A stretch of 64,000 bases of DNA from NCBI GenBank assembly GCA_963724325.1, contig CAVRUH010000007.1, positions 320,001 through 384,000 of the forward strand, written 5' to 3'. The notes beneath the pieces are model-generated. The model was not told the DNA's origin. It did not search any database and worked only from the letters and a program-made list of their open reading frames with translations. Below, piece by piece: positions 4,301 to 23,511 of this stretch; position 1 is the first letter of the stretch; every line of letters begins with the position of its first letter. The translations under genes were made by a program, and so were the position numbers. The DNA is from Waddliaceae bacterium (GTDB lineage Bacteria; Chlamydiota; Chlamydiia; Chlamydiales; Waddliaceae).

Positions 4301-4409
4301 CAATATTTAGACGCTTACAGGTTCTTGCGACATTGATAAGATCATTCGCGGGGACATGTTGTAATATACACGGAATATTGTTAAATATAGAATTTTCGAG
4401 ATTATTCAT
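1380..4409 (-). CDS. N-terminal F-box-like domain plus ankyrin repeats, probable secreted effector (1009 aa)
   Basis: N-terminal IPCILQHVPANDLINVARTCKRLN is F-box-like; ANK motifs GNTPL, GDTPLHKAV, GKTALDIA. Confidence 0.8.
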   Translation of the reverse strand: MNNLENSIFNNIPCILQHVPANDLINVARTCKRLNIAINTLTTSYWTKQIELDAKIFDEKGFPPHGVVKWLNMVQDRHLAKITYITFRFLCSLNKKDVVLDFCKDLKSMIPAPILCTRLLNTDLSSFPDYLMWAWEVVPDSDKQILFEMIAEKSLSSALLAFHKKTAKCYADFVDRGLNELIDQYPEDTRDLVFRLLIEFVEINELSAIDKLLTLKNKPLSKNDLNALLEGACKVKCKITILQRIIDAGAKPAEITMLLHQVVTYRSVDELPDILSFLINYGALVTTWNIKGNTPLKEFICLKRLRDGGEFVVELLAKHGDLETAKECFNEILINCGSLKIFQVLQDLGAYQTPAFHVAQLHYESCKWDLALFRALLVAGEDPNTLTENGKSVLSWHIERTYFHAEEIFSWLSLFDKFKADFTKDRSLLHVICKRQLPNRGKSVKFLLNKGLKATEEYDNTRPINLVVSNYDPDTCDDVIEILLNAGETLSSISDVNLRFFLYCYFGKINEIKNWTGDLPVEHRQKIKGTVALPIVAAIKNRHLDIVEFLLKKKGQKCLKFNWNGFNPFRAALQLEYAPLRQKMIKLIVKELGNSSLAVCLSLYKLITAEDFQLFKEIFNSMSKDVKIKYLSEHGCHVVDRAIKTYSKGHMDILEEIIKILPNEAWYFSRALFKLSSEKNAQKILQKLYEKHPECLTHKNDVSDIRPKNFYQVICSRMTADKKFQVHYHQLFLLVNSWIEKKPKNEIKTFQREGLISLFESFYYKESYLFDLKVENLPNIVDILFKRELFKIKKDTQKNILSLIYDVFFTTCQTMKSWEKMKKILKPLQLNFGIRNRYVQTPLHSMKISKSKIAHSLKKQNDPTKLLLIYKDMIRFAYENNVQKGIFLDADVSPLHKVVSIDGLQGFFDKDIKVRAELISLALADELINCGHPIDVKDLNGDTPLHKAVRDQNMPAAFRLLKAEANFNIKNKIGKTALDIAKDAQHLDLIAAMSKYNILIKEKSCMATL

Positions 4410-4417
4410 AGTTCTCC

Positions 4418-6157: not shown

Positions 6158-6263
6158 AGAATTCCTGATGTAGGTAAACTCTTAAACAGGATTGTGTCAT
6201 ACGATCCTTAGTGTTTTTTATAAGATATTATGTTGGATGTTTATAATATTTTCCAGAGAAACT

Positions 6264-6710
6264 TTGATGAGTCGTCCTTTCAGGACTCCGAGATATTATC
6301 GCATTCAACCCAGGCCTCGCTTCGCTCTGCCTGGGCTATCAAGGGTCCGGCCTTCAGCCGTCGTGCGAATGCCTCATTAAAATAAAGTAGGCATATGCAG
6401 ACGGCTGAAGGCCGGACCCTTGATAGCCCAGGCAGAGCGAAGCGAGGCCTGGGTTGAATGCGATAATATCTCGGAGTCCTGTAAGGACGACGCATCAATC
6501 CAGTCTGGGCTATTAAGGAGGCCAGCCTTCAGCCGTCGTGCGAATGCCTCATTAAAATAAAGTAGGCATATGCAGACGGCTGAAGGCCGGACCCTTGATA
6601 GCCCAGGCAGAGCGAAGCGAGGCCTGGGTGGAATGCGATAATATCTCGGAGTCCTGTAAGGACGACGCATCAATCCAGTCTGGGCTATTAAGGAGGCCAG
6701 CCTTCAGCCT
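6264..6710. repeat. Long palindromic repeat (family B): ~99-bp inverted arms 6264-6498 plus a 175-bp tandem re-duplication
   Basis: 6264-6362 is the near-perfect reverse complement of 6400-6498; 6351-6533 recurs 175 bp downstream; internal hairpin cccaggc...gcctggg. Confidence 0.9.
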
Positions 6711-9700
6711 AATTTTTTTGAATGCGGCATTTTGGGAATAATGCTTGCAATGTTATTAAGGCGGTATCGTCAGGTAGTGTTCCAGCAACATTGAGATCTA
6801 TAAGAGGAACGCAGAATAAAAGGGTTTTTATGGCCTCTATAGTCAGTTGTGGATTTTCAGAGAGATCAAGTTTACGCAAGGTTTTGATCTTCATAAGCGC
6901 CAATATCCCCAAATTACTCATCCGTTTATTGCTAATTAATTTTAAAGTCAGTAATTTTGGCAATTGAGCTATTTGGCAAAGAGCCTTATCATTAATGTCG
7001 GTACCAATAATAGACAGAGCAACAAGTGAACGCATTTTAGAGAGTCCAAGCCAGCCATCACTATCCCCATCTCTTAAGCCATTCAACCGAAGTTTTGATA
7101 GGCTTATTAAATTAGTTATATTGAAAATTAATTTTGAATTATCTTTAGCACGATAAATTTCTAGGTAATTAAGCTTGCGTATATTGATCAAGAAATCCCC
7201 AGATAACTTTTCTGAAGGGTGATGTAAATAAAGTGTTTCGAGTTCTACAAATCGCGCTAAATGCTGAAGCCCTAGATCAGTTAGATTCTCACAGTTAGAA
7301 AGCGTTAGTTTTTTGATCCTAGAAAAAGATAAAAATTTAGGAATGTCACCATTGCCAAAGGCGTCAAAAATAGTAAGTGAGCTAAATGCAGGTTCTAAAG
7401 ATTTAACAATTTTGAAAGTTTTCAAATCGGTATCTGCTGTATTAAGTCGCAATGGAATTTGTAATCCAATTAATTTGTTATTGTGCGAAAGATAGTCGAT
7501 GACTAATTCAATAAAAGGAATCTCAACTAAATAAAATGCATGCGGAGTGCAACAAAAATTGCAAATTTTTTCTATTACAGAATGCCAGTTATTGGTTTGA
7601 AACGACTGGGCCACATAATGTCGGAAAGATATATTAAAACCTGATTGAATCTCATTCGGTCGCTTGAATTGAATCTCATTCGATTGCTTGACCTGACATC
7701 CAAATTTTAACAAATATTGAATGATCTCTATTGTAGATGCATGTGACAAGGCCGTTAAACCAAGTGTATCCTGAGTATTAATTGCAAATTTCCGGTTTTC
7801 AACGAGTTCCTTGATTAATTCAAAATGTCCCCACTTAGCGGCAATATGTAACAGTGTATTGCCCTTCTTATCTCTCGAATGGACATTTGCCCCCGCATCA
7901 AGAAGCAACCGAACCATCGGGAGAATCATTTCGCGTTTTTCTTCAATTAGTTCGCTGCACCACGTGATAGGTGAATTCTCTTTGCTCCATCCTGTCCCAT
8001 TTACATTCGCACCTTTCTCCAGTAAGAATTTAACAACATCTAATCTTCCCATTTGAACTGCACAGGATAGGGCGGTTGTTCCCGCTTTTGAAGGCTGATC
8101 TAGCATGGCACCGTTTGCTAGAAGAAAATCAATATGGTCGATAGTTGCTTCAGATGAACACGCATAATGCAGGGCGGTATATCCATCGTTACAGTACTCA
8201 CGCAAATTAAATAGAGGCTTTTCAAAATGAAGTGCTTGACTGATCTCATTCATAGAATTATGTTTATATGCATTTGCTAGTAAACTTATTAAAGTTTTTG
8301 AAGCTATTATTTCATGACTCATAGAGTTTCGTCTATTCTCGTGTCGACGGTATAGATGATTAAGTCTTTCATTTGCTCCTTTAGTCACGTGAAAAGCCAC
8401 GAATTGAAGAGGGCTCTTATCAAAGCTCATTCGGAACATAACCCCCTTGAGGATAATATTATCGATGCGTTCCTTTACAGAAAATGAGGTTCGTCGCATA
8501 CAGCCGATTGCTTTGATTCCATCAGGTTCTTCACCGAGTTTTGCGATGACAATTTCGAGAATTGGGCTTTTTAGCTGAAAATGGGCCCTTGTTATTACAT
8601 GGGATTTTTTTCTGAGTTGATCATACTTCAATAAAATTGCCAGAATATCGAGTGCTTTCATTCCCAAAGCAAGGCTGAGGGGTGTTTTGCCATTTTCATT
8701 TAGAACCTTACAATCGGCGTTAGCCTCTATAAGGCAAGCAACAGATTTTTTGTTTCCCTTTTCCACCGCAATGTGAAGGGGCGTGTTGCCTTGCTCATTA
8801 GGGATATTAATAGGATGGCCCAGTTTGAGCAATTCTTGGATATAGGGAATAGGTTCTTGCAACGCAGTAGTTTCATGAAGTGGGGTTTGCGATTGAGGGA
8901 AGATTGCGTGATTACCGCCCTGATTCCAAGCAAAATGGATCATATCCTTTATAGGCTCGAAGTTCTTTGCCTGGTGCCTGCAAATCAAATTTAATGGTGT
9001 GACACCGTCAAAATTTTTTTCGCTAAAATCTGGCTGACAGACTATAAGTCTAGACTTAATCTCTTCCCAATCGGACAGGCTCAATGTGTTATGGGAAAAC
9101 ATTTCATAGATCCGGTGTAGAGGTGTTTGTCCTTTTCTATTCAGAATTTCCCATTGCCTTTTGGTGAACAGAATATCAAATATTTCACTTCGCTCTAAAC
9201 GAGGTATATTAAATAGACAATTGTTTTTTGGAGAAAAGAGGCGAATAAAGCCTCTCCTTAATATTTTCTCCTTGTCTTCAGTTGAATATGAACGTATCCA
9301 TTCAAAAAAAAGAAAAATTAATTTTAAGTAGTGCTCTTGCTTTTTTGGGTTAGTAGCTAAGTTTGTGCATATATTTTCAAAAAAGTTGCCATTGCCATCT
9401 TGTATATGCCATATCCAGTCGGGATAGCTTCGATAGATTTTTAAAAGTGCAGTTACTGCATGTTTTCCTTTGGATATTTCTACAAAAGGGGAGTATCTAT
9501 GCCATGGGATGCTTGGAACGTCTTTCACTATCGCATCGAACATATCGACATGGCCATTGCGAGCCGCTGCGATAGCGATATAAGCCATTTTAAAATAATT
9601 TTCACATAAATCAGGATAGCTTTTTACAAGGAATCTATAGACATCGAGATGTCCTCTCTCGATTGCTGCATAAAAGGGGGTCTCTCCAAATTGTAATCTA

Positions 9701-11034
9701 CCTGGGTGAGCAGAGAAATTCAGTGGAAATGTGCCCAACCATTTTTTTAGAATATGAAGCTGTCCAAAGCGGCATGCTAAATAGAAACGGAGTTTAGAGT
9801 CCGTAATTTTTTTTAAGGAATCTCCTGCTGCAAGAAGAGCTTCAATGACATCGTCTGCAACAATACTTGTGTTCAGATAGGCTTCAGCTGCATTATTAAT
9901 CGCAAGAATTGAATTCCGATTTTGGAGCAACTCCTTGAAGCCATTGTCCAAGAGGAATTGTACAACCTTGCCCCTTCCTGGAACAGCTAATTTGCAAATA
10001 AGATCGAGTAGCGTCGGATCTTTTAATAAGTCTAAGCCGTACTCTTTGAAGAGACTCAAAGTGGACTCTATTTGCTTGCCATTTTTACATCCTTGTTTCA
10101 ATGCTAAAAGAGCAAGAGATCTGAGATTTTTTGGATTTTCGTGAACGATCAAGGTTCTAAAAACAAAGGCATCATCTTCAAACATGTTGCAGCAATTAAT
10201 AAATTTGGCCAATGGGGTGAATGTATTTGTATCAAGAGCTGTAACTTGTGCGCTCTGTTGTATGAGGAAAGGTAACATTTCGCGAGTTGCAGCTTGCGGG
10301 GCGCTATTAATGAATACATGCAGGATTGTAGGGAATTTGCCTAGATTTGCCCCCATATCAATAAACAGTTGTGCAAGGGCTATATCACGCATAATCACAC
10401 TGGATTTCAAATAATCATCGATTACAGACTTTTCAAGATTTAATCCATCCTTAGATATTAATAATATTTTTTTTACAGCTAGTAAGTCTTTTTCAGATAT
10501 TGCTATCCTGATAAGTTTATCAATTAGTATTTTTGCTTGAGGTTTCTCTGGAATCCGTTCACACATTCCTCTATGAACGAAATCTAGAATAACTTGATCG
10601 TTATTCTGATGTATAAACTTATAGCATACATGGTCCAGAACTCGTTCGACAGTGAATTCGTAAAAGAGTTGTTTATCTTCTTCAGGGATTGCTGACCATA
10701 TTTTAAAGAGGCGATCATCGTATTCTCTCGTTGAAAGCAGGTAGTTGCAAAGTATAGGAGCGGGGAATAAGTCCAGGGATTGAGTAAATTGTAGCAGACT
10801 GAATTCATTTATGTTGGCGCATTTGAGGAGGTCATAGGCCAGTTCGCAGATCACGAGAAGATGATGATCACTGGCTTTTTTTATCCATTCAATGGTAATT
10901 TCGCGGCCTTTTATTGTCAGCCAGCAATGGTCTGGCCCTTTTGCCAGGGGGCACGGAGCAAAATTTAATCCAGAGCAACACAGTTCAAGTGTTGCCTCAT
11001 CCCTGGCTATTGGTTTTACATCATTCGATAACAT
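6709..11034 (-). CDS. Large ankyrin + internal F-box-like + C-terminal leucine-rich-repeat protein (1441 aa), probable effector
   Basis: Many ANK motifs (GETPFYAA, GNTPLHIA, GYTALHYAC, GNTLLHIAA); C-terminal LxxLxL repeats (LTLSNCENLTDLGL, LDLSENPQLT). Confidence 0.85.
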   Translation of the reverse strand: MLSNDVKPIARDEATLELCCSGLNFAPCPLAKGPDHCWLTIKGREITIEWIKKASDHHLLVICELAYDLLKCANINEFSLLQFTQSLDLFPAPILCNYLLSTREYDDRLFKIWSAIPEEDKQLFYEFTVERVLDHVCYKFIHQNNDQVILDFVHRGMCERIPEKPQAKILIDKLIRIAISEKDLLAVKKILLISKDGLNLEKSVIDDYLKSSVIMRDIALAQLFIDMGANLGKFPTILHVFINSAPQAATREMLPFLIQQSAQVTALDTNTFTPLAKFINCCNMFEDDAFVFRTLIVHENPKNLRSLALLALKQGCKNGKQIESTLSLFKEYGLDLLKDPTLLDLICKLAVPGRGKVVQFLLDNGFKELLQNRNSILAINNAAEAYLNTSIVADDVIEALLAAGDSLKKITDSKLRFYLACRFGQLHILKKWLGTFPLNFSAHPGRLQFGETPFYAAIERGHLDVYRFLVKSYPDLCENYFKMAYIAIAAARNGHVDMFDAIVKDVPSIPWHRYSPFVEISKGKHAVTALLKIYRSYPDWIWHIQDGNGNFFENICTNLATNPKKQEHYLKLIFLFFEWIRSYSTEDKEKILRRGFIRLFSPKNNCLFNIPRLERSEIFDILFTKRQWEILNRKGQTPLHRIYEMFSHNTLSLSDWEEIKSRLIVCQPDFSEKNFDGVTPLNLICRHQAKNFEPIKDMIHFAWNQGGNHAIFPQSQTPLHETTALQEPIPYIQELLKLGHPINIPNEQGNTPLHIAVEKGNKKSVACLIEANADCKVLNENGKTPLSLALGMKALDILAILLKYDQLRKKSHVITRAHFQLKSPILEIVIAKLGEEPDGIKAIGCMRRTSFSVKERIDNIILKGVMFRMSFDKSPLQFVAFHVTKGANERLNHLYRRHENRRNSMSHEIIASKTLISLLANAYKHNSMNEISQALHFEKPLFNLREYCNDGYTALHYACSSEATIDHIDFLLANGAMLDQPSKAGTTALSCAVQMGRLDVVKFLLEKGANVNGTGWSKENSPITWCSELIEEKREMILPMVRLLLDAGANVHSRDKKGNTLLHIAAKWGHFELIKELVENRKFAINTQDTLGLTALSHASTIEIIQYLLKFGCQVKQSNEIQFKRPNEIQSGFNISFRHYVAQSFQTNNWHSVIEKICNFCCTPHAFYLVEIPFIELVIDYLSHNNKLIGLQIPLRLNTADTDLKTFKIVKSLEPAFSSLTIFDAFGNGDIPKFLSFSRIKKLTLSNCENLTDLGLQHLARFVELETLYLHHPSEKLSGDFLINIRKLNYLEIYRAKDNSKLIFNITNLISLSKLRLNGLRDGDSDGWLGLSKMRSLVALSIIGTDINDKALCQIAQLPKLLTLKLISNKRMSNLGILALMKIKTLRKLDLSENPQLTIEAIKTLLFCVPLIDLNVAGTLPDDTALITLQALFPKCRIQKN

Positions 11035-11760
11035 GATAATTTCATATATTAATTGAAAACATCATATCATTTTCGATTACAAAATAGCTAATGCAATTTG
11101 CATATATTGGTGATTGCATCAAATTTCATGAGTCCGCATCGTAAGCGTCAAACTAAGTATTTCCGGTTTGGAGTGACCCAATTTATTGGGTCTTTTTCCG
11201 AGCCGAATTTATTCGGCTCGGTGGAGGGCGACACCTTGCCCTCCTTAGGTGAATGGCGAAATCTTGCCATGCACAGGGCCGAATAAATTCAGCCCTGAAA
11301 AAGACCTAATGAATTAGGTCACTCCAAATTAGACTGAGCGTTGAGTTAGGCAACGGCTCCGGTTTGACGCTTACGTATTTCCGGTTTGGAGTGACCCAAT
11401 TTATTGGGTCTTTTTCCGAGCCGAATTTATTCGGCTCGGTGGAGGGCGACACCTTGCCCTCCTTAGGTGAATGGCGAAATCTTGCCATGCACAGGGCCGA
11501 ATAAATTCAGCCCTGAAAAAGACCTAATGAATTAGGTCACTCCAAATTAGACTGAGCGTTGAGTTAGGCAACGGCTCCGGTTTGACGCTTACGTATTTCC
11601 GGTTTGGAGTGACCCAATTTATTGGGTCTTTTTCCGAGCCGAATTTATTCGGCTCGGTGGAGGGCGACACCTTGCCCTCCTTAGGTGAATGGCGAAATCT
11701 TGCCATGCACAGGGCCGAATAAATTCAGCCCTGAAAAAGACCTAATGAATTAGGTCACTC

Positions 11761-13665
11761 GTGCGCCACGAGGCGTCATTCTATCAGTGATGGGAAGGTC
11801 ATCACTAGGTAAGTTAAACCCAAACAACCTATACCAAGTCATTGGGCTCTGGAGGTAACAAAATGAGTTAAGCGTATGACAGGGAAGATGCAGGCCGTGT
11901 GATTGAGCTCCGTTATTAATAGATCTAGGAGGCCGACACTGTGAGTGTTGATGGAAGGCAATATCACGTTTACTCGCTAAGGGAATGAGAAACGGGACTC
12001 CTCGGGGTCGTAGAGCAGGGCATGTATCGAAGATAGAATGATGAACGTGGGATATCCTCTAGCTCTTCTAGATAGAAGTACCATCTCCCTAGTATAAAAG
12101 CGAGGAAGATGGGATGGCGAAGAGGAAGTCAGATGGATTCATAGTACCGATGAAGGGACGAACAAGGAGGGCAAAATGCCTCCGCGGAGTCACTGGAGGG
12201 AAGGAATCCTCGGCTTTTTATCAATCTGAATATGGAAACGTATGAGTACAATAGAGACTGCAATCCCAAAGCGGGATACGGACACGAAACTTGCAAGAGT
12301 AGCTTGGCTCTCTGCAAAGGATCCTCGTAAGGAATTTACATGTTTAATGCATTTCTACAACGAGGAATCACTTCTAAAATGCTATCAAACGCTGGATGGA
12401 AAGAAGGCGGTTGGTATCGACAAGGTGACAAAAGACCACTATGGGTTAAACCTCAGAGAAAATCTTAACAACCTTCTGGAACGCATGAGGAAGATGGCCT
12501 ATAGACCAGGTAATATCAGGGAAGTACTGATCGAAAAGGAAGATAAGCCAGGTGCATATCGACCACTTGGTATCAGTAATTTTGAAGATAAGATGATCCA
12601 GATGCAAACGGCTAGAATACTGGAAAGTATATATGAACCAATATTCAAGAACTGCTCATTTGGTTTCAGACCAGGTAAAAGCTGCCATGATGCTATCAAA
12701 GCACTGCATAAATTTCTATACACAAACGAAATTGATACAGTTATTGATATGGACATGGCAAACTTCTTTGGTACCATAGATCACAAGATCTTGGAAGATT
12801 TCATGCGAATGAAAATCAAGGACCCAAAGTTTATGAGATACATCATTAGAATGTTCAAAGCTGGTATAATATCAGAAGGAGAACTTAGAATGACGGAGGA
12901 AGGAGTACCTCAGGGGTCGGTATGCAGCCCGATTATGGCTAACATATACGCGCATTATGTCTTGGACACATGGATTGAAGAAATAATTCAACCCAAATGT
13001 TGTGGACAGGTGAAACTCTTCCGGTACGCTGATGATGCTATCATATGCTGTGAAAAAGAGCAAGATGCAAAAAGAATCCTGGAAGTACTGGATAAACGTC
13101 TTGCAAAATTTAATCTCAAATTAAATAAAGACAAAACCAAGGTTGTACCTTTCTCAAAGGCAAAAGCCGGTAAAGGCATACAACAGGGAACCTTTGACTT
13201 CCTAGGATTCACATTCTACCTCGGTAAATCCAAGATGGGTAAATGGATACCAAAATTGAAGACTGCAAAGAAAAGATGTGTGACGAAACTGAAACGAGTC
13301 ACAACATGGGTTAAAGAAAACAGGAACAAATACAAACTAGTCCCATTATGGAAAAAGTTCTGCTCAAAACTGAGGGGACACATCCAATACTATGGGGTCT
13401 CCTTCAACTTCGCGAATGTAAAACTATTCATAGAAGAGTCCAAAAAGACATTCTTTAAATGGATGAACCGCAGAAGTCAAAGAAGATCTATGACTTGGGA
13501 AAAGTTTGATAGGTTTCGACTAAAACACCCGTTACCCGCAGTGGCTATTAAACATAGGCTATTTTGAGAGAACGAGCGAGTGGTAGGTCGGGAGCCCACT
13601 GCCTTAATTGGGCACGGTGGGATCTAATGAGGGGGGAGCCGGGTGACCGGTCTCCTCTACTCTCT
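11761..13665 (+). mobile_element. Group II intron, copy 1 (1905 nt)
   Basis: 5' GTGCG; domain V gagcccactgccttaattgggcacggtgggatc (AGC triad); domain VI ending ctactctct; removal restores an intact repeat unit; encodes RT. Confidence 0.95.
12242..13567 (+). CDS. ltrA: Group II intron reverse transcriptase/maturase (no endonuclease domain)
   Basis: RPLGI, SFGFRPG, GVPQG, RYADD, FDFLGF motifs and X domain (LRGHIQYY); 441 aa, no C-terminal HNH. Confidence 0.95.
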   Translation: MSTIETAIPKRDTDTKLARVAWLSAKDPRKEFTCLMHFYNEESLLKCYQTLDGKKAVGIDKVTKDHYGLNLRENLNNLLERMRKMAYRPGNIREVLIEKEDKPGAYRPLGISNFEDKMIQMQTARILESIYEPIFKNCSFGFRPGKSCHDAIKALHKFLYTNEIDTVIDMDMANFFGTIDHKILEDFMRMKIKDPKFMRYIIRMFKAGIISEGELRMTEEGVPQGSVCSPIMANIYAHYVLDTWIEEIIQPKCCGQVKLFRYADDAIICCEKEQDAKRILEVLDKRLAKFNLKLNKDKTKVVPFSKAKAGKGIQQGTFDFLGFTFYLGKSKMGKWIPKLKTAKKRCVTKLKRVTTWVKENRNKYKLVPLWKKFCSKLRGHIQYYGVSFNFANVKLFIEESKKTFFKWMNRRSQRRSMTWEKFDRFRLKHPLPAVAIKHRLF

Positions 13666-13918
13666 CAAATTAGACTGAGCGTTGAGTTAGGCAACGGCTC
13701 CGGTTTGACGCTTACGAAGGTGCCGCTTTATTTAAATTATTTAAAAATCGAGAATTTTTTGGTTAATAGAGATAATTCCTCGACAGGGCCAAATAGTCCT
13801 ACCCGCAAGTTGTCCCGTTGCACTGAGTAGTTTGCCAATGGGGGACTTTTCGTTCAGAACAATGACAAATTTATGCGTAGCTACTGTGTTTACACTGGGC
13901 ATAATAACTCCTCATCTA

Positions 13919-14659
13919 TTATTTATTTGCAAAAAACTTTTGCTTGAAAGTTGTCATAAGGGACTGTAAAACTTCATCGGCAAATGCCTTGGGATTTTCT
14001 TCATTCATTGCAAATAGATTCGCATACATGTCAGCAAATTTTAAAACTGTTGCAAGATGATCTACTTGCTTAATTGGGTTAGCAGCCACCCTGCATATAG
14101 CCTCAAGGGCTAACAAATCCCTTTCTGTAAATTCCCCCGCCAGGGCTTCTCCGTATAATTTAGTGCCAATTCTTTTACGTTCATCCAAGATCTTTTCGCC
14201 ATTTGGACCTTGGTATGAACATAACTTTGCAATTTTTTCTTTGTCGATATAGCTTTGTAAAAATAGAGCCGTCCATTGGTGCACTTGAAGAGTTTCGTCA
14301 TTTAGAATTTTTGCCCGGGTATAATGTTCTTCAACGGTTTGCATCATGCGGGGAACAATAAGACTAATAATTCTATCGTGATACTCATCTGAAGGTCTCG
14401 GAGCTCTCATATTTAGGAAAAAACTCCTGTAAATGATCTCAGAAGGGGAGGCAGTGGAGTTTTCAGATTTTTTTTGTTGTACAAAGGCGCAAAAGTCTTT
14501 TCTTCCCTTGATTTTAACCTTCGCAAGGTCCAGAAATTTTTTCTTTAAATATTTGGTTAAGTCCGTTAGCTCTTTTTCATCATAAGAATTACAGTTATAT
14601 ATAAGGGTCATAGCTGGACCAAAAACCCCTGCTTGATCAAATGATACTAAGTGACTCAT
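13919..14659 (-). CDS. Hypothetical protein (246 aa)
   Basis: Long ORF with ATG and upstream AGGA-type RBS; no recognisable motif. Confidence 0.65.
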   Translation of the reverse strand: MSHLVSFDQAGVFGPAMTLIYNCNSYDEKELTDLTKYLKKKFLDLAKVKIKGRKDFCAFVQQKKSENSTASPSEIIYRSFFLNMRAPRPSDEYHDRIISLIVPRMMQTVEEHYTRAKILNDETLQVHQWTALFLQSYIDKEKIAKLCSYQGPNGEKILDERKRIGTKLYGEALAGEFTERDLLALEAICRVAANPIKQVDHLATVLKFADMYANLFAMNEENPKAFADEVLQSLMTTFKQKFFANK

Positions 14660-14736
14660 TTATTGTTCCTGTGTAGAATTGTATTTATCGATTCCAGAAT
14701 ATAGCATAGAGAGTCGCTTGTCTGCAATGAAAAATA

Positions 14737-15582
14737 TTAAATGTCTCTGGAGATGATGAAGTGGGCGATGGCACAGAGAAGAGAGGTATCCCCAGCGAGA
14801 GAGGTAAGATTTTTTTGGCTTGAGTTAAGTAGTTTGGCGGCGATATCTTTTGATTTTTCGATGCCCAGCAGGGTAACATAGGTGGCCTTTTGATTAGAGG
14901 CGTCTGAGCCTGTGGCAACATGATCCAATAAGTCATCCACAATTTGAAATGCTAACCCAATATTTCGTCCGAATTCCTCAAGATGGTGCATTTCGTCTTG
15001 AGAGGCATTTGCAATAATGCCTCCAAATAGTACAGATGCTGTAATTAGTGCACCAGTCTTCTTGTGATGTATTTGCTCGAGGGTTCTAAGATCAATCGTT
15101 TGACCCTCGGAATCCATGTCCATTAGCTGGCCTATGATCATCCCTTCGCCTCCTGCATTCTTAGCCAGCAGAGCAACGAGGGCAATTTTCTGTTCGGGTG
15201 AAAGATGAGGGGCCTCCGACAAAACTTGAAAGGCATGAGTTAGCAGAAAATCACCTGCAAGGACCGCTTCTGCCTCACCAAAGGCTTTGTGCAAGGTCGG
15301 AATGCCCCTGCGCATGTCGTCGTTGTCCATACAGGGAAGGTCGTCGTGAATCAATGAATACGTATGGACCATCTCTAAAGCACATGCTGGGGATAAAGCA
15401 TTTTCAATTTTGCCATTAAAAGCCGCAGTTGCGGCGAGAGTGAGGATCGGACGCATCCTTTTTCCTCCTGCAAGAAGTGAATATCTGGCGGCTTCGTGCA
15501 ATCTCGATTCGCAAGGCAAAAGAAATTCGAGATGTTTCTCGATGACTTCCTTTTGCGAAGTGAGATAGTCCGTTATTACCAT
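14737..15582 (-). CDS. ispA: Farnesyl/geranyl diphosphate synthase (polyprenyl synthetase)
   Basis: GGKRMRP, SLIHDDLPCMDNDDMRRG, KTGAL, GLAFQIVDDLLD; start placed at MVITDY. Confidence 0.92.
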   Translation of the reverse strand: MVITDYLTSQKEVIEKHLEFLLPCESRLHEAARYSLLAGGKRMRPILTLAATAAFNGKIENALSPACALEMVHTYSLIHDDLPCMDNDDMRRGIPTLHKAFGEAEAVLAGDFLLTHAFQVLSEAPHLSPEQKIALVALLAKNAGGEGMIIGQLMDMDSEGQTIDLRTLEQIHHKKTGALITASVLFGGIIANASQDEMHHLEEFGRNIGLAFQIVDDLLDHVATGSDASNQKATYVTLLGIEKSKDIAAKLLNSSQKNLTSLAGDTSLLCAIAHFIISRDI

Positions 15583-15584
15583 AT

Positions 15585-16952
15585 TCAGAATACACTTTCC
15601 TCTTGCAGCATTTCGGCAAAGCGAGGCTTTAGGCCGATGCAATAGTAATCAAATCCCCATTTATTCATTTCATTGGGATTGTACTGATTGCGGCCGTCGA
15701 AGAATCCAGTACCTTTCATTTTGGCTAGGATTTTTGGAAAATCGAGGAATCGGAATTGCTTCCACTCGGTCGCAAGTGCAATGGCATCGGCACCGGTGGC
15801 GGTTTCTTCTTCATCTGCACACCAGGTAATGCGTGGGTCGTCACCTAAAAGAGCTTTCATATTTTCGATTGAGACTGGATCATAGGCTCGAATAGAGGCT
15901 CCAGCCTTTAATAGCTGGTCAATAAGGACTAATGAAGGAGCTTCGCGGATATCATCTGTATCGGGTTTAAATGAGAGGCCCAGAATGGCGATAGTTTTAT
16001 TGGTGAGGCCGCCTCTTTTTTCGAAGTAGTTTTTGATTTTGTTTCCTAAAACAAGTTTTTGGCGGGCGTTCACGTTGCAAACTGCATCTAGAAGGGGAGT
16101 AGGGTATTCCAGGAAATTGGCGTGATGGCGCATAGCGGTGACGTCTTTTGGAAGGCATGAACCTCCATAGCCTATTCCTGCGTATAGAAAGCTGTAGCCG
16201 ATGCGTGGGTCGGCACCCATTCCTCTGCGCACTTTGTTGATGTCTGCACCGGTGATCTCGCATAGACCTGAAAGCTCATTCATAAATGAGATTCGAGTTG
16301 CCAGCATTGCATTTGAAGCCCATTTAGTAAGTTCTGCAGAGCGAATATCCATGATGATGAGTCTTTCGTGACTGAGCATAAAAGGGGAGTATATTTCACG
16401 CATTGCTGGGATGGGTCGTTGGTTATCGGCGCCGATGATAACACGGTCTGGTTTCATGAAATCGAGGACTGCATTTCCTTCTTTGAGGAATTCGGGATTG
16501 GCTACGACATCGAAATCGATATTTTTATTGAGTTTATCGAGTGTGCTTAGAATGGTTTCTTCGATGAGGGAGGCAGTTCCGACGGGGACAGTAGATTTAT
16601 TTACGACGATCATGTAGTCGTGCATTTGTTCGGCGAGGGTTGCAGCTACTTTTTTCACTGAGCTTAGGTTGGCGCTGCCATCTTCTGAGACTGGGGTGTC
16701 GACGCATATGAAGCATACAGTGGCCGATTTCATCGCATCTGTGTAGTCGGTAGTGAAGCGGATTCGGTGTGCTTTCGTGTTTCTTTTGAGCATTTCTTCA
16801 AGACCTGGCTCATAAATGGGGATAAAGCCTTCATTAAGTTTGGCGATTTTTGCTGTGTTGATATCTAGGCATACTACTTTGTGTCCCATTTCTGCAAAAC
16901 AGGTCGCCGTGACGAGTCCAACATATCCTATGCCAATAACTAATAATTCCAT
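15585..16952 (-). CDS. ugd: UDP-glucose 6-dehydrogenase
   Basis: GIGYVG, NKSTVPVG, NPEFLKEG, GYGGSCLPKD, FKPDTDDIRE. Confidence 0.95.
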   Translation of the reverse strand: MELLVIGIGYVGLVTATCFAEMGHKVVCLDINTAKIAKLNEGFIPIYEPGLEEMLKRNTKAHRIRFTTDYTDAMKSATVCFICVDTPVSEDGSANLSSVKKVAATLAEQMHDYMIVVNKSTVPVGTASLIEETILSTLDKLNKNIDFDVVANPEFLKEGNAVLDFMKPDRVIIGADNQRPIPAMREIYSPFMLSHERLIIMDIRSAELTKWASNAMLATRISFMNELSGLCEITGADINKVRRGMGADPRIGYSFLYAGIGYGGSCLPKDVTAMRHHANFLEYPTPLLDAVCNVNARQKLVLGNKIKNYFEKRGGLTNKTIAILGLSFKPDTDDIREAPSLVLIDQLLKAGASIRAYDPVSIENMKALLGDDPRITWCADEEETATGADAIALATEWKQFRFLDFPKILAKMKGTGFFDGRNQYNPNEMNKWGFDYYCIGLKPRFAEMLQEESVF

Positions 16953-17072
16953 AATCGTTTCCTATCATTGATCTTGATAGCAAATATTACCATATTTCAC
17001 TATATCGCTCAATACCGATTCTTTACTATGCTCTTATTCCTTGGAAAAAAACAGGATATGCAAGATCGCAAG

Positions 17073-17247
17073 CGGCATGATGGGCAAGCATATGCACCAA
17101 CTTAAAAAAAATTCTAACACCGAGTTCACCGAGAAAAAGAGAGGTAGCACAGAGCTATTTTATACTCAATGATCTCTCTTGTGTTCTCTCGTGTTCTCTG
17201 TGGTAAATGATATTTTAGGTTGATGCGTATGCTAGCACATCATGCCG
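17073..17247. repeat. MITE-like element (family C) with 35-bp imperfect terminal inverted repeats and internal CACNGAG/CTCTGTG repeats
   Basis: cggcatgatgggcaagcatatgcaccaacttaaaa (17073-17107) vs reverse complement of 17213-17247, 30/35 match. Confidence 0.7.
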
Positions 17248-17275
17248 AATGTTATGTTTCTATGGGGTATCACTG

Positions 17276-19372
17276 TTAAAATTCTATGCGAGGGACGAAG
17301 CTGTTGTAGTCTTCGCGGCTGGGGGCTCGGAGACCGACGGAGAAGTTGATCGAGAATCTGTCTTCATCTTCGCGGTGCCTATAGAAGAATTGGAGATGCC
17401 AGGTCGAACGTATGGTGCCAAGGAGGTTGATTTGGTATTCTTTGTACTGAGGTTGGCGGGGTCTATCCCAACCAAATCGAGAGTTAACAAGCAGTGCCCA
17501 GTAGGGATGAAATTTATAGTAAAAATTTAACAGAAGGGTATCCCGTCTGTCCGAAAGTTGAGAATCTCGTAACTCTTTTACAGGGACAAACGAGTCTAGC
17601 ATGAAATTGTTATGGTCCACTTTTCTCCATGAAAAAGCGCTCCTATATCTGTATTCAGTGGAGACAGCTAAACGTTCGCTTAAGGTCCATTCGATCAAAT
17701 AATTATAATGATCCAGTATACCTTCTCGGAAATCCCAACCGGTTGTTATTCCTTGTCTGAGATATGGAGTAGCATTATAAACACATTTTGCATATGCAAT
17801 GGGGGCAACCGAATGAACTGTGTCCGTGTTAAAGAAAAGATTTGTCCAAACGTCTAGGTAGAGATCTCGTGAGATACTGCTATTGGTCATTTTTTTGTAT
17901 AGAGATTGATCAAATCCAACGCGCATCAGGCTTAGGTGATACCAACCATCGTCGATATCAAAGATGTAGACTTTGTTTGGATTATATGTTGGAAAACTGT
18001 AGTAGTGGTACTTTACGTAAGGGCTTATCACGTGTTTATGTGAATTGAAATATCTGTAAAAACTGGAGTTAATTTCTCCTCCCAAATAGCCGATATTCAT
18101 CCATCTTTCGCCGCCGTGTTTAGGACTGCTTCCATAGTAGATAGAAACTCCACCAATCTCCGGAGTCATGTTTAGGTTTAAAAAGTGGAAGGGGCGATAG
18201 ATTGAATTGGCAAATTCGTAGCGTGGAGAGTTGTAATCATTTTCGTGGGTGTTTTTGTTGTATTCGAGTTCCAGATAAGATGCTTTAAAGTTATTTTCGG
18301 AAATAATTCCCGTTCTGCCTATTTCGAATGCTCGGAAGTTTCCGGCAAGTGTCGGAAGTTCTTCTTTTACTGTTTGGAAGTTGTTGATTCGGACCCTTGT
18401 CAGAAAGTTCATGATCCAATTATTTTCTTCGTGCCTGATATGAAGCTGGGTTCTTTTAGCTGTATCGAGCTGGATGCCTTTGTCTTCGTAGTCAGAGGCC
18501 ATATCTTTGTCGCTGAGTTTATCCCAGGAAAGGTCTATGGTTGTTTTCTCGTCATTGAAAATGGCGCCATAGAGACCTTCGAAGCGGTAACGGGTAGTGA
18601 ATTTAGCATTATAGAGGGTCATGTCGTTGGCGATGTAGTTGATAGTATCTAGGCTGTGGTTGCCATCTTTTGAGCGGTAGTTTGTTTCGAATCCGCCGCC
18701 GAGCCCGCGTTTTATCAAATAGTCAAGATGAAGGAAGGCTTTCCATTCTTTCCATGAAAATATTTCGTAGATCATGCCGACGCGTGGTCCTTGGCTGCCG
18801 CCGACTCTAGCGGTATATCTTATGGGGTTATCGAAGATTACGTCTAGGTTGATTTTGAAGCTAGGAAGCCAAAAAAGAGGGAGTTTTACAAATTTGAAGT
18901 AGACATTTTTTGTTGTGAGGTATTTTTTTTCTTCTAGAAGGGCCTCTTCCGAGCCAATTTCCCAATCTAGATCAATATTTTCGGAGGTGGTGGCATATCC
19001 ATCAAAAATCTTATAACTGCCATCAGCTAAAAGGTGGATTTCTTTGCCTCCAAGGAACCAAGGTTCTACGCCTGTGCGCCCTTCATACAATATTCCTGAG
19101 CGTGAAATGAGATCGTATTCGATTCGGCTGCCGGCGAAGACATATTCTCCGCATTCGACCATGAGGTCGCCTTCGGCCTCTACATTTTCGACACCTGTTT
19201 TGCGTGTATATGCCATTCTGATGGCTTGGATTCGCAAGTTTGGTCCGGTGATGATACCGCCTTTATCTGTGCGGAGGACTCCCTCCTCATAGACGGGTTC
19301 TCGGAGGTCTACGCCGTACCCGAAAAGGGTTAAAGGCAAAAGGATAAATGTAAATAAGCAGTTTCTTATCAC
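17276..19372 (-). CDS. LPS-assembly protein LptD-like outer-membrane beta-barrel
   Basis: Signal-peptide-like N-terminus, OstA-like beta-jellyroll N region (VEAEGD, RIEYDL), aromatic-rich barrel, C-terminal Phe. Confidence 0.6.
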   Translation of the reverse strand: MIRNCLFTFILLPLTLFGYGVDLREPVYEEGVLRTDKGGIITGPNLRIQAIRMAYTRKTGVENVEAEGDLMVECGEYVFAGSRIEYDLISRSGILYEGRTGVEPWFLGGKEIHLLADGSYKIFDGYATTSENIDLDWEIGSEEALLEEKKYLTTKNVYFKFVKLPLFWLPSFKINLDVIFDNPIRYTARVGGSQGPRVGMIYEIFSWKEWKAFLHLDYLIKRGLGGGFETNYRSKDGNHSLDTINYIANDMTLYNAKFTTRYRFEGLYGAIFNDEKTTIDLSWDKLSDKDMASDYEDKGIQLDTAKRTQLHIRHEENNWIMNFLTRVRINNFQTVKEELPTLAGNFRAFEIGRTGIISENNFKASYLELEYNKNTHENDYNSPRYEFANSIYRPFHFLNLNMTPEIGGVSIYYGSSPKHGGERWMNIGYLGGEINSSFYRYFNSHKHVISPYVKYHYYSFPTYNPNKVYIFDIDDGWYHLSLMRVGFDQSLYKKMTNSSISRDLYLDVWTNLFFNTDTVHSVAPIAYAKCVYNATPYLRQGITTGWDFREGILDHYNYLIEWTLSERLAVSTEYRYRSAFSWRKVDHNNFMLDSFVPVKELRDSQLSDRRDTLLLNFYYKFHPYWALLVNSRFGWDRPRQPQYKEYQINLLGTIRSTWHLQFFYRHREDEDRFSINFSVGLRAPSREDYNSFVPRIEF

Positions 19373-19519
19373 GAGCTACCAGGGCAATATTTTGCAGTCA
19401 TCATATGGCTTCTTCAGAGATATAATCAAGAAATAAAAAAAATCCTTGCACTAATATTTGATTTTTTGTTATTCTCTGAATAGAAGATGAATTAACTTAG
19501 TTCTTTATATAGGAGCAAT

Positions 19520-20914
19520 ATGAGTTATACTGACCCAAAAAATTATTCTGTACTAAATAGTTATGATTTTCGGGATAAAAATCATGTTAATTCGTTTTTA
19601 GATTGGGCAAGTACCCCATGCCGCAGAGTCTTAGGCGGTAGAAATGTCTATTTAAGGTCCTTGAAACATGAAGCTGAAATGTCAACTGCAAAAAAGGTGG
19701 CGGTCATATTTTTTTCAGTTTTGATATTTCCTATTGCGCTTATTTCACTAGCTAGCCTTGCAGTTAAAGTCATTACTTTACCATGGATATGGGAAAAGAA
19801 CAAAATGGCAGAGCAAGTTGCTAAGACAACTAATGTCTACAATCAATTTATACTTGCATGTAATCAAAATCGTCATAGTGATGCCCTTGCAGAAATCGCA
19901 AAAGTACCAGAATTAGCTCAGGATATAACCGTTAACCGCGCTCTTTTCACTGCGATTAACAGGAAAATTAACAATAATGATTCTTGGGATGAGATTAAAG
20001 ATTCACTAAAACTGCTTAGCTCGAGTGATGCTATTAGCTTAATCGATCACGCCGTAAAAGCTAGATTAGCCAATGAATTTAACAAAAACTACTCCTTTAT
20101 AAAAGGGGATGATATTTCGGATTTAATTAAAAATTCATTAGATGGAAAAGATGCTCTTAAGGAGTGCTATGATAAGTTACTTTCGAGCTCTTTAAATGTC
20201 GATGTTTCTTCAGGTAATGTGGCATTAAATGCTAGAAAGATGGAATTAGCGGATCATGTTTTCACATTCCGCACACGAATGATGCAATCTTATGCTGCAA
20301 ATGCAATAGAACATCAAGCGGCATCGATTTTTGAGTTAAATGAAAGAGACGATTTATTCGGAGGAAGAAGTAATGCAGGTTTGACTTTGCAGTATAGAAT
20401 GATGTTTAAATCAATGCCTGATATGCAGCAGATCCATGATGCTGTACAGACCACACGTAATGTGACGTTAATTGGTCAGGATGCCTTTGATGAGATTAAT
20501 GATGCGATATTACAATCACAAGTTAACATGTGGAGTATTATTAGACAAGCCTGTAGCAGGTTTGATAATGCTTTAAGGGGAGCTTGTAATTCACAGGGCG
20601 AAAGAAAAGTATTGGATTTGATTCAAGAACAACTTAAGCGGCAAATATTTGATGTAGTAGATATTTCTTCCCGAACAGTGATTACAAATGAAGATAAAGC
20701 AAAGTTAAATGCTATTAAGGCCGACGTGAAACAGATCAATATGCCTAATTTGCAACAAGTTCAAGGTAATCAATCCTTATTGGATAGCATGCTGGAGCAG
20801 CTACGATTACAAAAAATGAATACAATAGTAGCTTTTGCTAAACTAATAAAAGACACAATGGCTCCTAAGGCTACAAAAATAATGAACGATATCCTAAACC
20901 CCGTTAATCCGTAA
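19520..20914 (+). CDS. Hypothetical protein with N-terminal hydrophobic (Inc-like) segment, paralog 1 (464 aa)
   Basis: AGGAG RBS; VAVIFFSVLIFPIALISLASLAVKVI hydrophobic stretch; paralog at 23577. Confidence 0.8.
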   Translation: MSYTDPKNYSVLNSYDFRDKNHVNSFLDWASTPCRRVLGGRNVYLRSLKHEAEMSTAKKVAVIFFSVLIFPIALISLASLAVKVITLPWIWEKNKMAEQVAKTTNVYNQFILACNQNRHSDALAEIAKVPELAQDITVNRALFTAINRKINNNDSWDEIKDSLKLLSSSDAISLIDHAVKARLANEFNKNYSFIKGDDISDLIKNSLDGKDALKECYDKLLSSSLNVDVSSGNVALNARKMELADHVFTFRTRMMQSYAANAIEHQAASIFELNERDDLFGGRSNAGLTLQYRMMFKSMPDMQQIHDAVQTTRNVTLIGQDAFDEINDAILQSQVNMWSIIRQACSRFDNALRGACNSQGERKVLDLIQEQLKRQIFDVVDISSRTVITNEDKAKLNAIKADVKQINMPNLQQVQGNQSLLDSMLEQLRLQKMNTIVAFAKLIKDTMAPKATKIMNDILNPVNP

Positions 20915-21295
20915 CGTCTCGCTATTTCACAGGGCCGAATAAATTCGGCCCTGAAAAAGACCCAATAAATTGGGTCACTCCATAACAGAAATTTGCAAGT
21001 TTATCACTAATCATTAAATTTGGAGTGACCCAATTCATTGGGTCTTTTTCAGGGCTGAATTTATTCGGCCCTGTGGATGGCAAGATATCGCCGTTCACCG
21101 TGCCCAATAAATTGAGCACGGAAAAAGACCCAATGAATTGGGTCGCTCCATAACAGATCCTTAAATTTGGAGTGACCCAATTCATTGGGTCTTTTTCAGG
21201 GCTGAATTTATTCGGCCCTGTGGATGGCAAGATATCGCCGTTCACCGTGCCCAATAAATTGAGCACGGAAAAAGACCCAATGAATTGGGTCACTC

Positions 21296-23200
21296 GTGCG
21301 CCACGAGGCGTCATTCTATCAGTGATGGGAAGGTCATCACTAGGTAAGTTAAACCCAAACAACCTATACCAAGTCATTGGGCTCTGGAGGTAACAAAATG
21401 AGTTAAGCGTATGACAGGGAAGATGCAGGCCGTGTGATTGAGCTCCGTTATTAATAGATCTAGGAGGCCGACACTGTGAGTGTTGATGGAAGGCAATATC
21501 ACGTTTACTCGCTAAGGGAATGAGAAACGGGACTCCTCGGGGTCGTAGAGCAGGGCATGTATCGAAGATAGAATGATGAACGTGGGATATCCTCTAGCTC
21601 TTCTAGATAGAAGTACCATCTCCCTAGTATAAAAGCGAGGAAGATGGGATGGCGAAGAGGAAGTCAGATGGATTCATAGTACCGATGAAGGGACGAACAA
21701 GGAGGGCAAAATGCCTCCGCGGAGTCACTGGAGGGAAGGAATCCTCGGCTTTTTATCAATCTGAATATGGAAACGTATGAGTACAATAGAGACTGCAATC
21801 CCAAAGCGGGATACGGACACGAAACTTGCAAGAGTAGCTTGGCTCTCTGCAAAGGATCCTCGTAAGGAATTTACATGTTTAATGCATTTCTACAACGAGG
21901 AATCACTTCTAAAATGCTATCAAACGCTGGATGGAAAGAAGGCGGTTGGTATCGACAAGGTGACAAAAGACCACTATGGGTTAAACCTCAGAGAAAATCT
22001 TAACAACCTTCTGGAACGCATGAGGAAGATGGCCTATAGACCAGGTAATATCAGGGAAGTACTGATCGAAAAGGAAGATAAGCCAGGTGCATATCGACCA
22101 CTTGGTATCAGTAATTTTGAAGATAAGATGATCCAGATGCAAACGGCTAGAATACTGGAAAGTATATATGAACCAATATTCAAGAACTGCTCATTTGGTT
22201 TCAGACCAGGTAAAAGCTGCCATGATGCTATCAAAGCACTGCATAAATTTCTATACACAAACGAAATTGATACAGTTATTGATATGGACATGGCAAACTT
22301 CTTTGGTACCATAGATCACAAGATCTTGGAAGATTTCATGCGAATGAAAATCAAGGACCCAAAGTTTATGAGATACATCATTAGAATGTTCAAAGCTGGT
22401 ATAATATCAGAAGGAGAACTTAGAATGACGGAGGAAGGAGTACCTCAGGGGTCGGTATGCAGCCCGATTATGGCTAACATATACGCGCATTATGTCTTGG
22501 ACACATGGATTGAAGAAATAATTCAACCCAAATGTTGTGGACAGGTGAAACTCTTCCGGTACGCTGATGATGCTATCATATGCTGTGAAAAAGAGCAAGA
22601 TGCAAAAAGAATCCTGGAAGTACTGGATAAACGTCTTGCAAAATTTAATCTCAAATTAAATAAAGACAAAACCAAGGTTGTACCTTTCTCAAAGGCAAAA
22701 GCCGGTAAAGGCATACAACAGGGAACCTTTGACTTCCTAGGATTCACATTCTACCTCGGTAAATCCAAGATGGGTAAATGGATACCAAAATTGAAGACTG
22801 CAAAGAAAAGATGTGTGACGAAACTGAAACGAGTCACAACATGGGTTAAAGAAAACAGGAACAAATACAAACTAGTCCCATTATGGAAAAAGTTCTGCTC
22901 AAAACTGAGGGGACACATCCAATACTATGGGGTCTCCTTCAACTTCGCGAATGTAAAACTATTCATAGAAGAGTCCAAAAAGACATTCTTTAAATGGATG
23001 AACCGCAGAAGTCAAAGAAGATCTATGACTTGGGAAAAGTTTGATAGGTTTCGACTAAAACACCCGTTACCCGCAGTGGTTATTAAACATAGGCTATTTT
23101 GAGAGAACGAGCGAGTGGTAGGTCGGGAGCCCACTGCCTTAATTGGGCACGGTGGGATCTAATGAGGGGGGAGCCGGGTGACCGGTCTCCTCTACTCTCT
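21296..23200 (+). mobile_element. Group II intron, copy 2 (1905 nt)
   Basis: Same length and ends as copy 1; flanks gggtcactc | cataacagatcc restore the 147-bp unit. Confidence 0.95.
21777..23102 (+). CDS. ltrA: Group II intron reverse transcriptase/maturase
   Basis: Identical to 12242-13567 except AVAIK to AVVIK near the C-terminus. Confidence 0.95.
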   Translation: MSTIETAIPKRDTDTKLARVAWLSAKDPRKEFTCLMHFYNEESLLKCYQTLDGKKAVGIDKVTKDHYGLNLRENLNNLLERMRKMAYRPGNIREVLIEKEDKPGAYRPLGISNFEDKMIQMQTARILESIYEPIFKNCSFGFRPGKSCHDAIKALHKFLYTNEIDTVIDMDMANFFGTIDHKILEDFMRMKIKDPKFMRYIIRMFKAGIISEGELRMTEEGVPQGSVCSPIMANIYAHYVLDTWIEEIIQPKCCGQVKLFRYADDAIICCEKEQDAKRILEVLDKRLAKFNLKLNKDKTKVVPFSKAKAGKGIQQGTFDFLGFTFYLGKSKMGKWIPKLKTAKKRCVTKLKRVTTWVKENRNKYKLVPLWKKFCSKLRGHIQYYGVSFNFANVKLFIEESKKTFFKWMNRRSQRRSMTWEKFDRFRLKHPLPAVVIKHRLF

Positions 23201-23511
23201 CATAACAGATCCTTAAATTTGGAGTGACCCAATTCATTGGGTCTTTTTCAGGGCTGAATTTATTCGGCCCTGTGGATGGCAAGATATCGCCGTTCACCGT
23301 GCCCAATAAATTGAGCACGGAAAAAGACCCAATGAATTGGGTCGCTCCATAACAGATCCTTAAATTTGGAGTGACCCAATTCATTGGGTCTTTTTCAGGG
23401 CTGAATTTATTCGGCCCTGTGGATGGCAAGATATCGCCGTTCACCGCGCCCAATCAATTGGGTCGCACCATAAAAAATTGCGATCATGCTTCTTTAGAGA
23501 TAACAAATTCT

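Follow-up and report, generated by a model that had tools for sequence, protein, structure and literature searches.

How does a mobile intron come to occupy the same base of a small repeat over and over again? The question is raised by a 64,000-nucleotide stretch of the genome of a Waddliaceae bacterium (assembly GCA_963724325.1, contig CAVRUH010000007.1, positions 320,001 to 384,000), hereafter the window, which carries two 1905-nt copies of a group II intron on its plus strand (11761..13665 and 21296..23200). Each lies inside an array of repeats that resemble repetitive extragenic palindromic (REP) elements and their paired form, the REP doublets forming hairpins (REPINs). An earlier note on this sequence had described two copies that differ by one substitution, have different flanks and sit at the same base of the repeat, and both the coordinates and a comparison of the flanks agree with it. 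We find that the intron is an endonuclease-less group II intron of class E, and that it sits at one fixed base of the REP-like repeat in 11 of 11 copies from two related genomes. As set out below, we think it probable that the intron gets there by ordinary sequence-guided retrohoming to a sequence of about 15 nt that forms the conserved end of a dispersed repeat, both splicing and mobility being predicted from the sequence.

The 11 copies comprise the two full-length introns of the window, a truncated one elsewhere in the same genome (G000) and eight in a genome of the same genus (G195), which came from 400 scored genomes and whose intron-encoded protein (IEP) is 83% identical to that of the window; related loci in genome contigs were found with an alignment query and not with a single-protein query. 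In the window, the target of copy 1 (11739..11760, plus strand) consists of the hairpin GACCTAAT-GA-ATTAGGTC (11739-11756) and then ACTC, so that intron-binding site 1 (IBS1), CACTC, occupies 11756-11760 and the first base of the 3' exon is the C at 13666. The target of copy 2 (21274..21295, plus strand) has its hairpin at 21274-21291, again followed by ACTC, with the 3' exon starting with C at 23201. Both copies thus sit at hairpin-GGTC-ACTC^C, 4 nt beyond the stem. In G195 all eight copies lie behind a hairpin, with CACTC (seven) or CACTT (one) before the intron and CA after it, in five two-armed units, two compact palindromes and one lone arm, giving hairpin-CACTY^CA as the common pattern. 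The third copy in the window's genome, found by whole-genome BLAST at C1:876338-876599, is 98-99% identical and interrupts the same base of the same repeat; it retains the 5' 133 nt, lacks positions 134-212 and with them exon-binding sites (EBS) 2 and 1, continues to position 340 and has lost the downstream repeat flank. The earlier note had allowed that copies in unrelated sequence would speak against specialization, and all nine further copies are in the repeat. Copy 1 occupies the third unit of a tandem array of three REPIN-like units with a period of 218 (11167..13716), copy 2 the second full unit of a REPIN-like array with a period of 147 (20930..23470, outer limits approximate), and removing the introns in silico restores both the 218-bp and the 147-bp period. 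The further claim that excision yields perfect units goes too far: the restored 218-bp unit matches its neighbours over 209 nt, up to the end of the array, and the restored 147-bp unit has one base, within IBS1, that neither of its two full neighbours shares, the occupied unit reading TCACTC and both empty neighbours TCGCTC.

A short motif alone does not explain this choice of site. In the window's genome the repeat holds 122 of the 696 empty CACTC^C sites and all three of the intron copies (p about 0.006), and in G195 19 of 286 empty TCACTY^CA sites fit the repeat pattern, against eight of eight copies in the repeat (p 5e-9; granting as many as 40 empty arms gives 5e-7). G195 also harbors a second REPIN-like family with TGAAGTGA ends (for example C1:745248-745402), whose 52 arms, 41 of them exact, end in TCACTT^CA without a local hairpin; it has received none of the eight insertions. 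Because this family is unused despite its TCACTT^CA, something upstream of IBS1 matters.

What the intron itself contributes to recognition can be read from its clade, for which we took loci of at least 48% identity, obtained the 5' end for 106 and not for 42, and kept 83 distinct introns after removing duplicates, exons shorter than 10 nt and odd d3 lengths. EBS1 consists of the six bases that follow the near-invariant T of the d3 loop. Watson-Crick matches to exon positions -1 to -6 occur in 79, 74, 77, 74, 75 and 68 of the 83 introns and drop to 19 at -7, and 379 of 415 pairs are matched compared to a shuffled mean of 132 and maximum of 166, with neighbouring registers at background. The position of EBS1 is thus confirmed by covariation. 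In copy 1 the delta base (T, 11942) and EBS1 (GAGTGT, 11943-11948) span 11942..11948 on the plus strand and pair with exon positions -1 to -5, with a mismatch at -6; the corresponding bases of copy 2, placed by identity, are 21477..21483 (plus strand). The GAGTG proposed in the earlier note at 11943-11947 is therefore the right element, in a loop that is actually 6 nt long. EBS2 is likewise real in the clade, with a mean score of 9.9 across 81 introns compared to 6.3 +/- 0.2. In the window intron the clade register points to a weak candidate, TTAAT (11916..11920, plus strand), which would face exon positions -8 to -12, that is, the 3' arm of the hairpin; since the IBS2 region is this arm, pairing there would need an open hairpin. 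EBS2 of the repeat-targeting introns makes two to four Watson-Crick pairs, in the window intron three to four A-T pairs plus wobbles. The EBS2 base facing -10 is A opposite T here and G opposite C (five sites) or T (three sites) in G195, and this A-to-G change, a single event, points to an EBS2 that may still be in use. EBS3 was looked for in the clade alignment and was not located.

The landing site itself belongs to a family of 146 arms at 34 loci in this genome, of which seven lie inside open reading frames (ORFs) of at least 150 aa and 139 outside, such ORFs covering about 81% of the genome. Together with the 11 of 11 copies, these counts bear out the view that the intron has specialized on a multicopy intergenic repeat. 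The arms form inverted pairs and arrays and fold strongly (z -10). On its opposite strand an arm reads T-GGAG-T-hairpin, with the GGAG head 1 nt from the hairpin foot; the intron site lies on the complement of this head, and insertion splits it G/GAG, after the first G. A 180-aa Y1 HUH protein is encoded on contig C5 with a repeat array on one side only, starting about 60 bp upstream. It matches Y1_Tnp above the cut-off and the model for REP-associated tyrosine transposases (RAYTs), NF047646, with 79.3 bits at a cut-off of 80, and another genome of the same family (G199) carries two above-cut-off RAYTs with TTGGAGT-hairpin pairs within 600 bp. The canonical REP head is GT[AG]G, a tetranucleotide at the hairpin foot (PMC6006769). 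The repeat has GGAG in its place, and for that reason we call it REP-like and RAYT-associated. Renewal of the target pool by the RAYT, whose activity is predicted from its sequence, is likely, and the suggestion in the earlier note of a self-multiplying target pool gains support from the RAYT-type gene beside the array.

Two further features of the repeat were observed. Two empty arms of the window's genome, C1:169198 (minus strand) and C7:318020 (plus strand), have an additional T at precisely the intron site (CACTC-T-CAAA). The T is the last base of the intron, the two arms account for two of the three indels in the core of 127 aligned arms, and both are on the G-rich strand. They are possibly scars of intron loss or of aborted homing via the CTC common to the exon and intron ends, the alternative being sequencing error; a search for the same footprint in G195 found none. 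In addition, an insertion sequence of 1.49 kb that encodes a DDE_5 transposase is present in about eight near-identical copies (for example C1:772305-773790 and C1:933.7-935.2 kb of G000), two of which lie within the target REPIN family of the intron, beside its inner hairpin, and the others in a different palindromic repeat.

The intron begins with GTGCG and ends with CTACTCTCT (GTGCG...CTACTCTCT). The sole difference between the window copies, which are 7.6 kb apart, is at intron position 1785 (C/T), giving Ala435Val in the ORF, and their flanks differ from -9 and +3 outward. The 5' regions of both match Rfam RF02005 with 109 bits, which covers the 5' GUGYG start and the domain I fold. The domain IV ORF (12242..13567, and 21777..23102 with Ala435Val in copy 2, both plus strand) encodes a 441-aa reverse transcriptase/maturase with a YADD motif (RVT_1, E 8e-40; TIGR04416, 312 bits at a cut-off of 300). 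RVT_1 is its only Pfam domain, no endonuclease domain was detected and the ORF stops just upstream of domain V; subtracting its 1326 nt from 1905 leaves an ORF-less intron of 579 nt. As the earlier note had it, domain V (13592..13624, plus strand) is full length at 33 nt with an AGC triad (13593-13595); it has an AC bulge and a 5-nt loop, UAAUU as read from the sequence, and is 33 nt long in 45 of 48 clade sequences. The G of the triad lies opposite A and does not form the usual G-U pair, likewise in 13 of the 48. The Rfam domain V/VI model has no match to the intron, and this clade may be undercounted by pipelines that rely on the model. Domain VI (13629..13665, plus strand) has its bulged A at 13659 (-7) and ends in CT, so the AY consensus, which is usual and not universal, is absent and the terminal pyrimidine is retained; 48 of the 64 clade ends examined also have CT. 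A 1904-nt intron with T as the first exon base was rejected. The 1905-nt boundary is preferred because TCACTC^CA is the reading in 122 of the 146 arms and because this boundary puts the bulged A at its usual position, -7.

Assignment to class E, which upholds the earlier description of the intron as non-IIC and endonuclease-less, comes from both BLASTP and phylogeny. Against references labelled according to the supplementary table of Miura et al. 2022 (PMC8919778), the IEP scores 275 bits with class E, 184 with class D and 138 or less with the remaining classes; class C gives the weakest labelled match (70 bits, from a short-ORF reference), so the IEP is not that of a class C intron. A quick maximum-likelihood IQ-TREE tree of 41 proteins, built without class CL1 or g1 references, groups the query clade with the E references (Shimodaira-Hasegawa-like approximate likelihood ratio support 99). 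The branch sister to the query clade contains an E. coli plasmid intron, and plasmid introns with an equal tblastn score (308 bits) bear the label E in the table of Miura et al., in which a Piscirickettsia homolog has no class label (PMC8919778). The Rfam alignment of the intron shows a GGG-bearing terminal loop, a candidate for the alpha' that class E introns carry at the tip of a DId3 stem-loop, where this class also has an extra bulge. Nagy et al. describe class IIE introns as having a domain V loop of 5 nt and a length of 450-700 nt once the IEP is left aside (PMC3753933), and the window intron, with its 5-nt loop and 579 nt outside the ORF, agrees with both. Class C introns are marked by the lack of an EBS2 region and a 3-4 bp EBS1, and here there is an EBS2 loop and a 6-nt EBS1 loop making five pairs. 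The class C trait that is present is the stem-loop directly upstream of the site, whose stem ends at -5.

The orientation of the insertions bears on how they may have arisen. The sense strand of the intron is on the locally G-rich strand in 11 of 11 insertions, compared to empty arms that are distributed 68:72 between the strands. The G-rich strand is the sequence of the leading strand, and with that the introns would have inserted into the lagging-strand template. This route has been described for endonuclease-less introns (PMC4424553, PMC8643678), and a moderate strand bias has been reported for class E introns by Miura et al. (PMC8919778). The bias observed here fits that expected for fork-coupled homing and is in line with the class E bias of Miura et al.

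The wider clade shows how unusual a structured target is. Only 12 of 73 clade targets have a folding z of -2 or less relative to shuffles, and on this count a clade-wide hairpin rule was rejected; there is also no trade-off across the clade between EBS2 score and target hairpin pairing (rho -0.08, p 0.5). Three multicopy chlamydial relatives differ in where they land: in G062 five of five ends lie behind one long palindrome, in G270 five of five lie behind a short direct repeat, and in G272 the four ends have only a short motif in common. Retargeting to repeats thus looks recurrent and not universal, judging from these sequences, and this speaks for homing guided by the EBS elements more than for a structure rule common to the class. 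None of five RAYT-like loci carries the repeat used in G270, and a RAYT link sought in G062, G068, G076 and G468 was not found. By eye, several clade introns lie in what we take to be other repeats, attC-like sites or IS200-like coding sequence. These presumably include a class E subclade (L098, L099, L112, L133, L136 and L140, two of them from Desulfobacterales records) at one site in attC-looking sequences and two class E introns from Scalindua records (L151, L159) at one site in an apparent IS200-type transposase gene. Two kinds of junction were also seen. In L064 and L087 the 3' end of one intron abuts another intron-like 5' end, suggesting tandem insertion. L309 (G054), L317 (G435) and L319 (G304) are tiny remnants that retain nothing of the intron except its 18-nt 5' hairpin, behind which the 5' exon recurs in inverted orientation, and this creates a new palindrome; such remnants could arise by fold-back at the 5' end of the intron.

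We put forward the following mechanism. The intron would be transcribed by read-through and spliced with the help of its maturase, and the resulting ribonucleoprotein would pair EBS1 with CACTY and also pair the C that opens the 3' exon. A short EBS2 contact at -9 to -12 would be added, probably together with protein contacts. Reverse splicing would then take place into the lagging-strand template, as single-stranded DNA at the fork, with the nascent strand serving as primer. By analogy with the guide role described in PMC6006769, insertion on the complement of the GGAG head, with its G/GAG split, would spoil the arm for the RAYT, and RAYT-driven spread of the repeat would in turn renew the target pool of the intron. 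In this mechanism the hairpin likely belongs to the repeat and is tolerated by the intron, which would not have to recognise it.

Several observations count against this proposal. At 11 of 11 sites of both repeat-targeting introns, position -6 is a U-T mismatch, and their EBS2 scores are 2-8 compared to a clade median of 10, so that pairing over the hairpin arm is thin; only six of 73 other introns have both weaknesses. The 3' arm of the hairpin ends at -5 in all 11 targets, which is the geometry of class IIC, and in G195 sequence matches and hairpins nearly coincide (19 and 18 sites), leaving sequence and hairpin inseparable there. The two-sided p of 0.001 for the strand bias overstates the strand case, as two copies are in one region and two of the skews are small (0.009, 0.014). 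Moreover, no RAYT tied to the target repeat was found in G195 with the RAYT of the window's genome as query, and a RAYT family search there gave four sub-threshold matches, the two examined being without a nearby head-plus-hairpin. It is on the thin pairing and the hairpin geometry that a different account can be built, in which targeting has converged on that of class IIC and a class E sublineage now recognises the DNA hairpin, with a shortened EBS1 and a decaying EBS2. We regard this as possible but unlikely. In its favor, the stem ends 4 nt before the site, the probability of pairing at -12 to -6 is 0.66-0.85 in the seven targets scored, and the -6 mismatch and weak EBS2 would be as it requires; the target hairpins of G195 vary in sequence with compensatory changes, although such changes belong to the repeat family regardless of what the intron needs. 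The second G195 family, which has the motif, no local hairpin and no insertions, can be cited for it too, but that family also differs at -7 to -13 and offers only a G-T wobble at -1. Against it, the target of L125 has only a 6-bp stem, the sister intron L043 (75% identical) retains a 5-bp EBS2 on a non-repeat target, and the clade as a whole shows no exchange of EBS2 for hairpins. Of the hairpin use implied by the earlier note, the presence of the hairpin at -5 is borne out and its recognition is at most a possibility, sequence and hairpin coinciding in these genomes and the clade using EBS1 and EBS2 on mostly unstructured targets. More elaborately, a class E lineage might have acquired IIC-style hairpin recognition independently, given up its -6 and EBS2 pairings and become a parasite of a repeat that the RAYT maintains, inserting into exactly the tetranucleotide on which the RAYT depends, with intron and RAYT competing for the single-stranded structure at the fork; we consider this doubtful.

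Sequence-guided retrohoming to the end of the repeat must also be set against accounts that need no preference for the repeat at all. If the intron inserted wherever a short CACTY^C occurs and all insertions other than those in intergenic repeats were lost, the 81% of the genome in long ORFs would make most motif sites costly, and with the three copies of the window's genome alone the share of the repeat among intergenic sites could, by our estimate, approach one half. This is nonetheless very improbable, since in G195 eight of eight copies occupy the rarer family, leaving empty the 41 exact arms of the second one along with other harmless sites, and survival leaves the conservation at -7 to -14 over 11 sites unexplained. 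Passive spread after a single entry into one repeat, with the intron then copied along by the RAYT or by recombination, would draw on the dispersal of the repeat over 34 loci and on the RAYT-type gene. We give it scarcely any credence: it is largely refuted by the flanks, for from site to site the repeat variants diverge outward of -9 and +3, although the introns between them show little or no difference; the shared sequence ends at the intron ends, and the strand bias fits homing. Least of all do we believe that one window copy is an assembly duplicate. The copies are only 7.6 kb apart, both in repeat arrays, and public contigs cover parts of the intron and none bridges a junction by 31 bases on each side (upstream 30 and 28), but the two have different flanks and one substitution, there is a third, diverged copy elsewhere and G195 has eight resolved copies, and the claim of repeat targeting rests on neither window copy singly.

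Apart from the introns and their arrays, the window contains three tandem ankyrin-repeat genes on the minus strand (1380-11034), one with a weak F-box match and one with a weak leucine-rich repeat match; ankyrin-repeat genes of this kind are common in intracellular bacteria.

The significance of the system lies in its target. Homing to a repeat would free the intron from the usual restriction to a single homing site in each genome and would avoid genes, the repeat being a large and mostly harmless pool of landing sites that is likely kept up by another mobile element. The intron is a natural system for two questions, the role of EBS2 in class E and the possible emergence of hairpin recognition in classes other than C. 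Each REPIN presents its target in both orientations, and the system thereby contains its own control for fork-coupled insertion. If homing is plainly sequence-guided, the interest is ecological and evolutionary and not mechanistic; it would be greater if the hairpin were required. A dispersed REP-like family as the homing target of a non-IIC intron is something that we did not find in print: a full-text literature search, outside of which most subscription papers fall, gave no account, in chlamydiae or elsewhere, of REPs or REPINs serving such an intron as homing sites.

Among known systems, RmInt1 differs in being a class D intron whose target reportedly lies inside an insertion sequence and thus in a transposase element, compared to the small non-coding repeat used here. 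It is alike as an endonuclease-less, IIB-like intron that invades single-stranded targets at the fork (PMC8643678). Closer in lineage are class E introns such as Cl.be.I2, which share the IEP lineage, the lack of an endonuclease, the 5-nt domain V loop and the possession of EBS1 plus EBS2, and in which EBS2 was found dispensable for splicing and a role in homing suggested (Nagy et al. 2013, PMC3753933). The available text of that paper describes no repeat or REP target, and unlike Cl.be.I2 the window intron has a weak EBS2, lacks the -6 pair and has a CT 3' end. The class C introns behind terminators and attC sites are also endonuclease-less, multicopy, intergenic and strand-biased, and insert 4 nt behind a stem-loop (PMC4424553, PMC8643678, PMC12584367). 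The window intron differs from them in IEP class, in its AGC domain V, 6-nt EBS1 loop and EBS2 loop, and in that its targets share about 15 nt of sequence where those of class C are unrelated hairpins. A 2015 review names homing sites, terminators and attC sites as the three target specificities of bacterial group II introns (PMC4424553), and hairpin use is ascribed to class C alone in the available portions of Waldern et al. (PMC7306698) and of Gomes et al. (PMC12584367). The group IIB and class E introns that lie next to attC sites are alike in being non-IIC introns behind DNA hairpins for which a structural role was suggested, and differ in being single or truncated copies with, in the text at hand, neither a fixed-site series nor a connection to REPs or RAYTs (Sonbol and Siam 2021, PMC7923331).

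The repeat, for its part, resembles the REPs and REPINs served by RAYT/TnpA-REP proteins, in that its palindromes are numerous and intergenic and come as inverted pairs and arrays, that a tetranucleotide precedes the hairpin foot on the 5' side and that a Y1 HUH gene is found beside an array (PMC6006769, PMC3733652). It differs in its GGAG head, not GT[AG]G, and in having the array on one side of the gene only; a GGAG head is not mentioned in the accessible parts of either paper. REP-targeting insertion sequences are mobile elements that likewise use a REP family as a landing pad, and differ in using DNA transposases (Tobes and Pareja 2006, PMC1525189). The same authors placed two of the nine group II introns of P. 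putida KT2440 (22%) at REPs (PMC1525189). Since eight of these nine are class C and one is class E in the table of Miura et al. (PMC8919778), that association most likely reflects hairpin use by class C. Where two of nine introns in KT2440 lie at REPs (PMC1525189), the class E intron described here is found at one and the same base of its REP-like repeat in 11 of 11 copies.

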